A stretch of 4,617 bases of DNA. It comes from a virus. Its lineage: Duplodnaviria; Heunggongvirae; Uroviricota; Caudoviricetes. Positions 1 to 3,000 of the stretch are shown piece after piece. A program made the position numbers. The stretch lies in IMG/VR virus record IMGVR_UViG_2526164690_000037. One strand, written 5' to 3'. Position 1 is the stretch's first letter; each line of letters starts with the position of its first letter.

Positions 1-3000
1 TGCTGAAACAGTGGGATGCACTGAACGTGTACTGCAGTAATGGCTGGGTGGAAATCGACAACAACATCGCAGAGAACGCCTTACGGGGAGTGGCCGTAGG
101 CCGGAAAAACTGGATGTTCGCGGGTTCCGACAGCGGTGGTGAACATGCGGCGGTGTTGTACTCGCTGATCGGCACATGCCGTCTGAACAATGTGGAGCCA
201 GAAAAGTGGCTGCGTTACGTCATTGAACATATCCAGGACTGGCCGGCAAACCGGGTACGCGATCTGTTGCCCTGGAAAGTTGATCTGAGCTCTCAGTAAA
301 TATCAATACGGTTCTGACGAGTCGCTTACTGTCATTCTCCTGTTCTGCCTGTATCACTGCCCACTTCATCCAGCCCCTTAACATCCTGCCACGGCCCGTC
401 ACCAAACCTGACCTGCAAATGCTGAAAAAAACCCTGAACCCGTGTGGCATCTTTGGGGGCAAGAAAGGTCAGTCCGGTGATGAGTGCGCCATCTGTATCC
501 GGGAACCAGCCATTGCTGTTTGTCTCAATAATGTTTCCCGGCCCCAGACGAAAACGGATTTGTGTCTCCCCCGGGTCGCCCTTCGGTCCCTGAGGTCCGG
601 TTGCCCCCACCGGGCCAGCCGCACCTGTTTCTCCTTTCGGTCCCTGTGGGCCTGCCGGGCCTGCCGCACCGGTATCTCCCTTTGGACCCTGTGGACCTGC
701 ATTTCCCGTCAGACCGGTCTCTCCCCGCTCTCCCCTGTCACCTTTCGGCCCCTGCGGGCCTGCCGGACCAGCATCACCTGCCGGTCCCCGTTCGCCGGTT
801 GCCCCGACAGGGCCGGTGTCACCGCGCTCTCCCTTATCACCCTTCGGCCCCTGAGGACCCGCGGGCCCCTGTTCCCCCTTTGGCCCGGGAGGTCCCACCA
901 CGGTGGGGATTCTGTTTACGGCTTCTTCCGCCGCTATCCTGCTTTGTTCCGCTGACTGTGCGCTTTCTGCTGACTCCCGGGCTTTTTCTGTTGCGGTCGT
1001 TGCATCCCTGGCTGCATTACCGGCTGCACTTTCTGCCGTCTTTCTTGACAATTCAGCTTCTGCTGCACTTTGTGATGACTCACTGGCTTTTTGAGCGGCC
1101 GCAGAAGCCGAGGACGAGGACGCCTCCTCTGACTGCTTTGCTGAGGCTGCACTTTCTGCCGCCTGCCGGGCTGACTCCGATGCCTCCCCTGCTGAAGTGT
1201 CAGCATTTGCAGCGCTCTCTTCTGCCTGACTGGCTGATATGCCGGCATTCCTCGCTGACGTCTCCGCCTCTCCGGCATTCTTCTTCGCCTCCTCAGCGTG
1301 ACGCGCCGCTTCTTCCACCATCAGTTCAAAACGACGCAGTGCCTCCGGCCGGACGTCATCCTCCGACATGGCACCGAGAAAATCATTCAGCGTCCCCGGT
1401 TGAGAATCTTCATACACGGTGATGGTCCCGGCATGTGACGGAGGAAATCCCTCCACCAACAGAATGACGCTGTACTGACCGTACTCAACGTCCATGCTGT
1501 AACGTCCGGCTTCATCCGGATTTTCAGAGGCCACCGTGTTCACCACCACCGTGCTGCTGGTTCGTCTGGCCTTCAGCACAATGGTGCAGTTCTGTACTGG
1601 TTTTCCTGTGCCATCTTTAAGCACGCCAGAAATTTTTACTGTCATACTTTTCCACCAATAAAAAAAGCCCGCAGCAGTGACGCCACGGGCTTCAGGACAG
1701 TGTAACTTTACGTTTCCTCAAACGCAGTTCACCCCATAAGGTGGATGAACCTGCGTATCATAACAATATTTACAGAAGATAAATCGGCGTCTGTTGTCAG
1801 AAACGGTATCCGATACCAACAATAAATGCATCCGATCGCCAGTCGCCACTACCGGAACCGTCATAAGCAAGGTCAATGGTCACGGATTCGGTCGGGTTAA
1901 ACTGCACGCCAGCCCCCCACGCCAGAGACGTGTTGCTGTGGCGACCGTCATCACTTCCGGTCAGCACATCGTGCGTTTTCCCCTTGTTGTCAGTTACGCG
2001 GAGATAATCCCCGGAGAAAGTCGACACACGGCTGTAAGCCACACCCGCCATCGCATACGCGCTGAACCATTCATTCACGCGTACAGACGGCCCCGCCATC
2101 ACGCTGAACCAGCGGTTACGCACGGAATCTTCATGCCAGCGGGTATCGCTGTAGCGCGTTTTTGGGTCATCCTCAGCATTGGCATAACTGAAGGACGTAA
2201 TCAGCCCCAGCGCGTCCATAAACTCATAACGGTATTTCACGTTAATCCCGTTCAGATCATCACTACCGGGAACGTTCGTCGAGGCATGGAGATACCCCGC
2301 GCTCAGCGTGGACTGATGTTCTGCTGCACTCGCTGGCGTAGCAGCGGCGACCTGCCAGACTACTGCGGACAAAATAACAGCACATAATTTACGCATAATT
2401 ACCTCTCGCTTTTCTGCAATAAAAAAGGCGCCATTTCTGGCGCCCGTATCTGGGTTATAAAATTCAGCTAATCGTGATGCCTGCAGTGGCTTTCTTCATC
2501 ACCACAACCAGCAAATCGCTGATACTTGCTGTGGGATACCAGTTATTTACCAGCCATGCTGACACCGAAAACTCCAGTGTCATGTGACCGTGACCGGCAG
2601 GCATATCAATAACACCACTGTAAATCAGCGTATTATCCAGCGCGGTACGGTTATAAATTTCAGCACCGTTTTTCCGCACTATCAGACGGCATGAGGAGTA
2701 AATATCAGTATGCTCTTTCTCATGTTTAGCGCCGCTGAATGCCACCGCCGGAATAACAATCTGCCGGTCAAACGGCTGATCGTCATAAACCCTGACGGTA
2801 ATGGTTCCTGATGGCCACCGCTCCGGTGCACGGGAGTCCCGGGGGAAAGCTTTGCCCACTGTTTTAACGAGATCGCCTTCAATCTGGTTCGCGGACAATT
2901 TTCCCAGAACCCGACAGTTCTCGTTAATCGTGACGTTGTTGAGCGTCCCGGAGTTCGCATTCACGTTACCGCTGATATCGGCATTTTTCGCCGTCAGCCG

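Follow-up and report, generated by a model that had tools for sequence, protein, structure and literature searches.

The lom gene at positions 1797-2396 of the window, by which we mean the whole stretch of 4,617 nucleotides analysed here (IMG/VR record IMGVR_UViG_2526164690_000037), is very probably a standard, functional-looking allele of the 199-aa 'Stx-phage type', located in the canonical slot between J and stf of an O26:H11/O111 EHEC prophage and intact without special selection. The observation that lom is intact is confirmed. The original prediction had read this as a gene kept useful and insulated inside a decaying prophage, an interpretation which our results partly support but mostly do not. 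The allele itself is already annotated and named in RefSeq.

Chromosomes of O26:H11/O111 EHEC strains match the window with 100% identity, and 119 complete genomes hold it entirely, with 100% identity among the matches listed; RefSeq names lom there. The prophage is lambdoid, effector-carrying, about 55 kb long and nearly complete, its head, tail, lysis, immunity and int genes being annotated as intact. The 'degraded, IS-invaded prophage remnant' proposed earlier is IS-invaded, by ISEc22 and ISCro1, but it is not a degraded remnant. J, thought to be truncated, has suffered no deletion: ISEc22 splits the gene, with the N-terminal 815 codons located directly past the element, and in silico removal of ISEc22 together with one copy of its target-site duplication (TSD) gives an open J ORF of 1157 aa, of which residues 1-1156 align with lambda J 1-1131. 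Nor is stf truncated, as had been suspected, since its 437 aa are exactly the length of VT1-Sakai stf, to which it aligns end to end with 96.6% identity. The ISEc22 transposase gene, on the same strand as lom, starts at 3536 and extends past the window end. ISEc22 in J and ISCro1 at the stf stop codon are recent, simple transpositions, and nothing else has been removed or damaged. Because these insertions are recent and clean and the neighbouring genes are equally undecayed, the integrity of lom needs no special selective explanation. The lesson is one of method: an ORF beside IS elements is evidence of selection only if its neighbours have decayed, and here they have not. The features are listed in Table 1.

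Table 1. Features of the 4,617-nt window, in order of position
Feature	Position	Strand	Description
ISCro1 right end (IS66 family)	1-328	+	Transposase 3' end at 1-299; terminal ...CGCTTAC at 322-328; Pfam and annotation
ISCro1 8-bp target-site duplication	329-336		TGTCATTC; overlaps stf stop codon; second copy at L001 17613-17620
stf	332-1645	-	Side tail fibre protein, full length (437 aa): N-terminal domain, collagen repeats, C-terminal domain; Pfam PF08400, PF01391, PF06820
Intrinsic-terminator-like hairpin 3' of lom	1657-1693	-	Stem 1664-1693, 12-13 bp, then T7; z = -3.3; ends about 12 nt before stf ATG
Second hairpin in the 151-nt lom-stf spacer	1722-1756	-	Near-perfect 13-bp stem, without T-run
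lom	1797-2396	-	Precursor of an outer-membrane beta-barrel of the Ail/Lom family, 199 aa; RefSeq WP_001228278.1; signal peptide (1-24) and 8 strands predicted; ends in GYRF
Shine-Dalgarno GAGAGG	2402-2407	-	CCTCTC on the + strand; 5 nt before lom ATG
Intrinsic-terminator-like hairpin, J stop codon to lom	2418-2445	-	Stem 2426-2445, 8 bp, GAAA loop, then TTTTT(A)TT; MFE z = -2.9
J, C-terminal 344 codons (tail tip protein, receptor-binding end)	2464-3498	-	Pfam PF09327, PF12421; gene split by ISEc22 at 3498/3499
ISEc22 8-bp target-site duplication	3491-3498		AAAAAATC; second copy at L001 25953-25960
ISEc22 left part (IS66 family)	3499-4617	-	Terminal repeat begins GTAAGCG at 3499; Pfam PF03050, PF13817; RefSeq annotation

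The lom frame starts with ATG and runs over 199 aa with zero internal stops, and the traits announced for it, namely signal peptide, Shine-Dalgarno and C-terminal Phe, are all borne out. The N-terminus displays the Sec signal-peptide pattern, judged by rule (MRK, a hydrophobic core, then ASA/AE, residues 22-25 being ASA/A), and the protein ends in VGIGYRF, that is G194-x-x-Y197-x-F199. The 30-nt leader that holds the Shine-Dalgarno is nearly invariant in the 88 cassettes examined. Membership of the Ail/Lom/OmpX family also stands: Pfam PF06316 (Ail_Lom) covers residues 1-199 of 199 with E=3.4e-121 and 402.7 bits against a cut-off of 23, PF13505 matches as well, and so, along all 199 residues, does PHROG 108 ('Lom outer membrane protein'). 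The solved structures matched in sequence are lambda Lom (9wso_C, E=2.4e-45), OmpX (3e-18) and Ail (6.5e-17), and end-to-end alignment to the three supports an eight-stranded barrel as the probable fold. The AF2 model likewise has 8 strands, of which strand 1 is poorly formed. Strand and loop limits were taken from the strand pattern of this model combined with the OmpX alignment and, given its low confidence (mean pLDDT 57), they are approximate. OmpX, Ail and Rck/PagC, chromosomal or plasmid-encoded and virulence-related, are homologous 8-stranded barrels, whereas the protein studied here is phage-borne and has far longer L2 and L3. It scores below the equivalog cut-offs of Rck/PagC (NCBIfam NF011777, 112.9 bits against 258) and OmpX (NF006917, 97.3 against 176). 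GC content (0.53-0.57 in lom, 0.47-0.53 in the J fragment, 0.52-0.70 in stf) shows no clear break at the lom edges of the kind that marks by base composition a moron, which in the Juhala/Hendrix sense is a self-contained unit equipped with promoter and terminator; another moron trait, a downstream intrinsic terminator, is present on the minus strand.

The nearest phage protein is VT1-Sakai Lom (BAB19561), also of 199 aa, with 95.5% identity, and most Stx phage Lom proteins show 82-86%. Members of this 199-aa clade, which spans Stx and further lambdoid phages and prophages, have the J-lom spacer, hairpin, Shine-Dalgarno and slot between J and stf identical to those found here. Nine residues differ from VT1-Sakai Lom: two, E77D and Q78P, fall in L2, where the allele has the unique peptide ANAEDDPK, and the other seven are among the 27 at the C-terminal end. 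These C-terminal differences go with the 151-nt lom-stf spacer that replaces a 64-nt lambda-like one. The allele departs from its relatives at the conserved positions M60, D77/P78, D179 and S188, of which D179, S188 and P78 fall on near-invariant residues of the clade.

Lambda Lom (NP_040601; structure 9wso) occupies the same genomic slot, belongs to the same family, has a hairpin and T-run on both sides and shares the C-terminal G-x-x-Y-x-F. It had been treated as a near-identical orthologue diverging mainly in the signal peptide and the first loop, but it falls in a different clade, with only 40% (BLASTP) or 43% (global alignment) identity and differences across L1-L3. Identity amounts to 61% in the transmembrane strands, 30% in L1, 17% in L2, 25% in L3 and 100% in L4 (GSGDWR); lambda Lom has 206 aa and an L1 that is 8 aa longer. 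The expectation that variation of Lom lies mainly in the extracellular loops was correct. The peptide FMDALGLITSFSYANAEDDPK, quoted as the first surface loop, runs instead from the end of strand 2 through periplasmic turn T1 and strand 3 into the beginning of loop 2. As for the lambda structure, 9wso is not among the PDB entries of J, as a complex of the two proteins would be, and our literature search found no paper on it.

Both terminator-like hairpins flanking lom are real and lie at essentially the coordinates claimed. Their number in the region scan says little by itself (3 terminator-like sites where shuffles gave 1.5 +/- 1.4, a weak excess alone). The stem upstream of lom is 100% paired in 14 distinct variants among the 88 cassettes, with compensatory double changes through G-U intermediates in 2 of 8 pairs; this covariation supports a real RNA structure, which is part of the lom cassette everywhere, including in functional phages. 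An equivalent pair flanks lom in lambda, mEp460, Stx phages and all 88 cassettes examined, and the GenBank record of mEp460 labels both hairpins as rho-independent terminators. The original prediction's reading of the hairpins as insulation in a remnant is not supported. The downstream one is found in every cassette with the 151-nt lom-stf spacer, which also occurs in the isolated phages PhiR49_2, PhiR40_1 and vB_EcoS-569R4, whereas the 64-nt lambda-type spacer carries a different hairpin and T-run at the equivalent place. The second hairpin of the 151-nt spacer keeps its stem across loci while its loop varies. Scanning the entire window against Rfam at E<=1 gave no match, hence the hairpins and the spacer correspond to no described RNA family.

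The order J, hairpin, lom, hairpin, stf is common to lambda, VT1-Sakai, mEp460, BP-4795, PhiR55_1, SPF_0923 and 80 IMG/VR contigs, the IMG/VR loci having been chosen by a full-length Lom match. In the window and in 87 comparison loci lom lies between J and stf with all three genes on the same strand, and in 82 of these 87 the J frame is open through the entire 1.4 kb upstream. Matches to the lom cassette are present in 4786 of 5426 complete E. coli genomes (about 88%), at a median of 2 and a maximum of 13 places per genome. With a family so widespread and often multicopy, lom in itself matters little.

Could lom nevertheless owe its integrity and transcriptional insulation in a decaying prophage to a benefit for the host, be it adhesion, serum resistance or phage exclusion? 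Several points are consistent with this. The dN/dS of lom against 7 phage alleles is 0.19-0.29, with no region above 0.42, and to judge from these ratios the gene is under long-term purifying selection. Moreover, genes of the lom family are expressed in lysogens (PMC1151598, PMC3342100), an adhesion role is attributed to lambda Lom (Vica Pacheco 1997, as cited in PMC3594210), and overexpressed lambda Lom blocks lambda-vir (PMC12366544). We nevertheless consider retention for host benefit unlikely. There is no differential decay, J without the IS, stf and the other structural genes being as intact as lom, and the hairpins belong also to functional phages. The signal of purifying selection was built up largely in active phages and has no bearing on the present prophage, and the serum resistance of lambda is credited to Bor, not Lom (PMC1151598). 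The Rac prophage of K-12, a defective, IS-invaded lambdoid prophage which likewise has a lom upstream of its stf (stfR), offers a counter-example: there it is lomR that has been truncated and interrupted by IS5, stfR and tfaR remaining open, whereas here J was hit and lom spared. Positive selection on the loops of Lom was considered too and is rejected, pN/pS being at most 0.42 in every region; variation comes in blocks resembling recombination between alleles rather than as point diversification.

Conversely, lom might be silent or non-functional: the IS would separate it from the late promoter, it would lack one itself, and allele-specific substitutions at conserved positions would impair folding. 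No sigma70-like promoter above chance appeared in the 3' end of J, where one had been anticipated, nor in the J-lom spacer or the 600 nt upstream of lom: a -35/-10 PWM scan peaked at 9.0 (502 nt upstream), less than the 9.45 that shuffled sequences reach as their mean maximum, and the minus strand yielded no site in the tool scan. A sigma54-like TGGCGC...TTGCA overlapping the upstream hairpin, spotted by eye, was rejected since its spacing is 3 nt too long. A terminator stands immediately upstream, ISEc22 now lies between the late promoter and lom and could reduce its expression from the late operon, and D179, S188 and P78 are unusual for the clade. Yet silence seems to us very unlikely. The replacements concerned, E to D and T to S, are conservative, and 872 complete-genome records have as their best match a cassette at least 99% identical over the 831 bases, in several cases adjoining an intact gpJ. 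Q-modified polymerase normally passes terminators and would probably pass an IS as well. Lambda, equally promoter-less in architecture, still transcribes lom in lysogens (PMC1151598), and phi24B expresses lom without need of induction (PMC3342100), so that prophage expression of the present allele is plausible by analogy with these two phages.

A further proposal starts from the disruption of J, as a result of which the prophage would form no infectious particles. Lom would then be a domesticated adsorption-blocking or superinfection-exclusion factor directed against its many lambdoid relatives among EHEC phages, and the covarying upstream hairpin and invariant 30-nt leader could act in regulation as a 5' element instead of simply terminating transcription. 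We hold this to be a highly doubtful scenario. If Lom excluded only its own phage, its loop alleles would be expected to be coupled to the receptor-binding domain of J; such coupling finds no support, many L1/L2 haplotypes occurring among the 76 of 86 loci that share the dominant J C-terminal type, and the association between Lom and J does not peak at the loops in these 86 loci, a sample dominated by that one J type.

Finally, mobilisation of lom by a composite transposon formed of the J fragment, lom and stf, as the 3.2-kb segment between two inverted IS66-family elements might suggest, is practically untenable and is rejected on TSD evidence, since the elements differ, each has its own perfect 8-bp duplication (TGTCATTC for ISCro1, AAAAAATC for ISEc22) rather than one shared, and beyond the IS the same genes go on, with the N-terminal portion of J on one side and the gene normally following stf on the other, all of which indicates two independent insertions into a pre-existing prophage.

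For the ordinary Stx-phage type lom that we favour, the following working can be proposed. During lytic growth the gene would be read within the Q-antiterminated late operon, through the terminators that flank it, while in the lysogen any expression would come from a weak or non-canonical promoter invisible to sequence analysis. The upstream terminator may then shield lom from ordinary read-through, including that from the co-oriented ISEc22 transposase operon. From what is known of the family, the precursor would be exported by Sec and cleaved after ASA24, and the signal G-x-x-Y-x-F at the C-terminus would direct insertion of the protein into the outer membrane by BAM. There it would form the 8-stranded barrel, with the long L2 and L3 protruding from the cell surface. 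The loops may serve a surface function, which could be adhesion, as for lambda Lom, or possibly a block of adsorption of related phages. The common clade in EHEC is the 199-aa one, a relative of LomW, a surface-recognised EHEC vaccine antigen (PMC10783022).

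The prophage that carries lom in E. coli NZ_CP031922 is nearly complete: it is IS-invaded and J-defective, not a degraded remnant. It starts with int/xis adjoining potC, and pseudogene flags are absent from exo, cI/cro and the replication genes, from the Q-position gene, tRNAs and lysis cassette, and from terminase, portal, capsid and the full tail module; T3SS effector cargo (nleA, nleH, nleF, espM1, nleG) lies 3′ of stf. The original prediction, a degraded, IS-invaded remnant, was thus right about the IS and wrong about the decay. The window equals positions 20001-24617 of L001, a stretch of this genome. 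It matches the chromosome at 100% identity in all 25 best-matching genomes listed (E. coli O26:H11, O111:H11 and related EHEC), and at least 80% of it is found in one place in 119 complete genomes.

Features of the window and hairpins flanking lom (z against shuffled sequence)
Feature	Position	Strand	z
ISEc22 (IS66-family) transposase gene, 3′ two-thirds	3536 to window end	-	
J, tail tip gene, C-terminal 344 codons	2464-3498	-	
Upstream hairpin	2426-2445, T-run to 2418	-	-2.9
lom	1797-2396	-	
Downstream hairpin	1664-1693, T-run to 1657	-	-3.3
stf, side tail fibre gene, complete	332-1645	-	
ISCro1 (second IS66-family element), right end	1-328	+	

Neither IS beside lom has removed any gene sequence. 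ISEc22 begins at 3499 (GTAAGCG...), and a perfect 8-bp duplication, AAAAAATC, borders it on both sides (window 3491-3498 and L001 25953-25960). In silico removal of the IS and one duplication copy restores a J frame open over 3474 nt (1157 codons), whose residues 1-1156 are 68.7% identical to lambda J 1-1131; J, taken to be truncated, is therefore split with no deletion. Likewise stf, suspected of truncation, encodes a protein of 437 aa (N-terminal, collagen and C-terminal domains) that matches the 437-aa VT1-Sakai stf end to end (96.6% identity). ISCro1 is a simple insertion too, marked by the duplication TGTCATTC (window 329-336). It sits exactly on the stop codon of stf, 1 nt 5′ of the ATG of a small 89-aa tail-fibre C-terminal-domain gene, and leaves both this gene and the stf ORF intact in this region (L001 17354-17625).

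Some minor features of this region can be mentioned. With ISCro1 in between, the 89-aa gene is cut off from its Shine-Dalgarno site and is no longer translationally coupled to stf. The ISEc22 transposase operon (3536-4617, minus strand) lies on the strand of the J fragment and lom, and read-through from it would enter the J fragment and then reach the terminator just 5′ of lom. Within stf, residues ~250-360 (window 560-900, minus strand) combine collagen-like G-X-Y repeats (Pfam PF01391) with a repeat stretch rich in Ala, Ser and Glu, which bring local GC to 0.70; this is a usual trait of EHEC prophage side tail fibres. The prophage ends differ: int/xis adjoins potC (L010 22995-24280, another stretch of the same genome), while the tail end runs via effector islands into an ompW fragment (L001 4633-4758) adjoining trp/yciEFG. 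Two different attachment loci at the ends suggest a recombination or an inversion involving two of the strain's prophages.

The neighbours of lom are as undecayed as lom itself. Since this holds for every neighbour, the intact lom frame points to nothing beyond recent IS insertions and is no evidence for selective keeping; the proposal that lom persisted because it is useful to the host is not supported at this locus. The Rac prophage of K-12 (L091 3390-4985) is a counter-example to privileged retention, with the situation reversed: lomR is truncated, and IS5Y separates the two pieces of what is annotated as a pseudogene, whereas the adjoining stfR and tfaR are spared and open. The lom cassette has matches in 4786 of 5426 complete E. 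coli genomes, and a single genome can hold as many as 13 of them; lom here is an ordinary, already annotated gene (WP_001228278.1).

Concerning insulation, the terminator-like hairpins predicted on both sides of lom do exist at the positions named and fold better than shuffled sequences. However, lambda has a hairpin and U-run on either side of its lom as well, and both are annotated as rho-independent terminators in the GenBank record of phage mEp460. The pair belongs to every lom cassette and is therefore not a mark of insulation in a remnant. The 67-nt J-lom spacer hardly varies among 80 IMG/VR contigs and six annotated phages that have a Lom of the 199-aa clade, and it is kept even beside different J C-terminus types. 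In 14 distinct variants of the upstream stem, 100% of cells are paired, with compensatory double changes in two of eight pairs (C-G to U-A, G-C to A-U) and G-U intermediates present; pairing was lost when partner columns were slid. These results support an RNA hairpin under selection. The lom-stf spacer exists in two types, and a GC-rich hairpin with a T-run closes both: a lambda-like one of 64 nt, and the window type of 151 nt, found in ~40% of sampled cassettes and in the isolated phages PhiR49_2, PhiR40_1 and vB_EcoS-569R4. In an active phage, going by established lambda biology, these hairpins would not stop the Q-modified late transcription complex.

The 151-nt spacer contains a second near-perfect 13-bp hairpin (1722-1756, minus strand) without T-run, for which no Rfam match was found; its stem is conserved and its loop varies across loci (CCACC, CCGCC, CCACT). 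In two IMG/VR contigs (L057 2101-2260, L084 2101-2215), unrelated DNA and not stf follows the lom terminator, thus some elements end or are deleted directly past the lom cassette.

No sigma70-like site emerged above chance in the 3′ end of J or the J-lom spacer. A consensus scan of the minus strand (1500-3000) found no promoter, and the best position-weight score in the 600 nt 5′ of lom was 9.0, 502 nt upstream, against a shuffle mean maximum of 9.45 +/- 1.8. Every candidate sits upstream of the terminator, and the 30-nt leader between hairpin and ATG lacks both the length for a promoter with its leader and an acceptable -10 element. Among moron features, lom has the terminator, but neither an own promoter above chance nor a compositional discontinuity was found. 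The lom genes of lambda and phi24B are reported to be expressed in lysogens (PMC1151598, PMC3342100).

The gene itself is intact, as predicted. Its 199 codons run without interruption, GAGAGG stands 5 nt 5′ of the ATG, and the N-terminus, in which MRK and a hydrophobic stretch precede ASA|AE, is a signal peptide by rule-based prediction. The C-terminal VGIGYRF fits G-x-x-Y-x-F, an ending typical of BAM substrates. The product matches Pfam Ail_Lom over 1-199/199 (E=3.4e-121) and PHROG 108 ('Lom outer membrane protein'). Among solved structures, lambda Lom (chain 9wso_C) aligns with all of it (E=2.4e-45), and OmpX and Ail align with its mature part (E ~1e-17 to 1e-18); by these matches the product is classed as an Ail/Lom member. 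It misses the NCBIfam equivalog cut-offs of Rck (112.9 vs 258 bits) and OmpX (97.3 vs 176 bits), so neither name fits. PDB entry 9wso contains two Lom chains, its partner chains are not J, and a literature search found no paper describing it. An antisense 197-aa ORF (1794-2387, plus strand) spans all of lom, most probably as a mere shadow of the coding strand.

Near-identity to lambda Lom, with differences mainly in the signal peptide and first loop, was not recovered: identity is 40% by BLASTP and 43% in global alignment, and lambda Lom falls in a different clade. With strand boundaries from an AF2 model (8 strands, low confidence) and an OmpX alignment, on which the regional values rest, identity is 61% in membrane strands, 42% in the signal peptide, 30% in extracellular loop L1 (8 aa shorter in the window Lom), 17% in L2, 25% in L3 and 100% in L4; the differences therefore cover all three long loops. 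By the same boundaries FMDALGLITSFSYANAEDDPK (residues 59-79), read as the first surface loop, reaches from the last part of strand 2 through periplasmic turn T1 and strand 3 into the beginning of L2. Among phage proteins, VT1-Sakai Lom is the closest (95.5% identity), and most Stx-phage Loms share 82-86%.

Variation in the 199-aa clade comes in blocks: signal peptide (12-25), L1 (37-49), 60-66, the ascending L2 limb (73-81) and the last 27 residues, this last block being linked to spacer type. L3 is nearly invariant, synonymous sites included. With dN/dS at 0.19-0.29 overall, the pattern indicates purifying selection and recombination between alleles; positive diversification was rejected, since dN/dS is at most 0.42 in any region and variation lies in blocks. 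Private residues of the window allele are M60, D77/P78, D179 and S188, and its L2 motif ANAEDDPKTR occurs in no other allele among 86 cassettes sampled. There was no sign of loop alleles tracking J receptor-binding type, many L1/L2 haplotypes occurring within the dominant J type of an unbalanced sample.

From family knowledge, the window Lom would be exported by Sec, inserted by BAM and expose an L2/L3 sheet at the surface. As cited in PMC3594210, lambda Lom is reported to confer adhesion of K-12 to buccal cells (Vica Pacheco 1997); LomW is reported to be recognised at the surface and to serve as a vaccine antigen (PMC10783022). Overexpressed lambda Lom was recently found to protect strongly against lambda-vir, which was read as possible superinfection exclusion (PMC12366544), and lambda serum resistance is assigned to Bor, not Lom (PMC1151598). 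Adhesion, surface recognition and phage exclusion, reported or suggested for these relatives, are candidate roles for the window allele.
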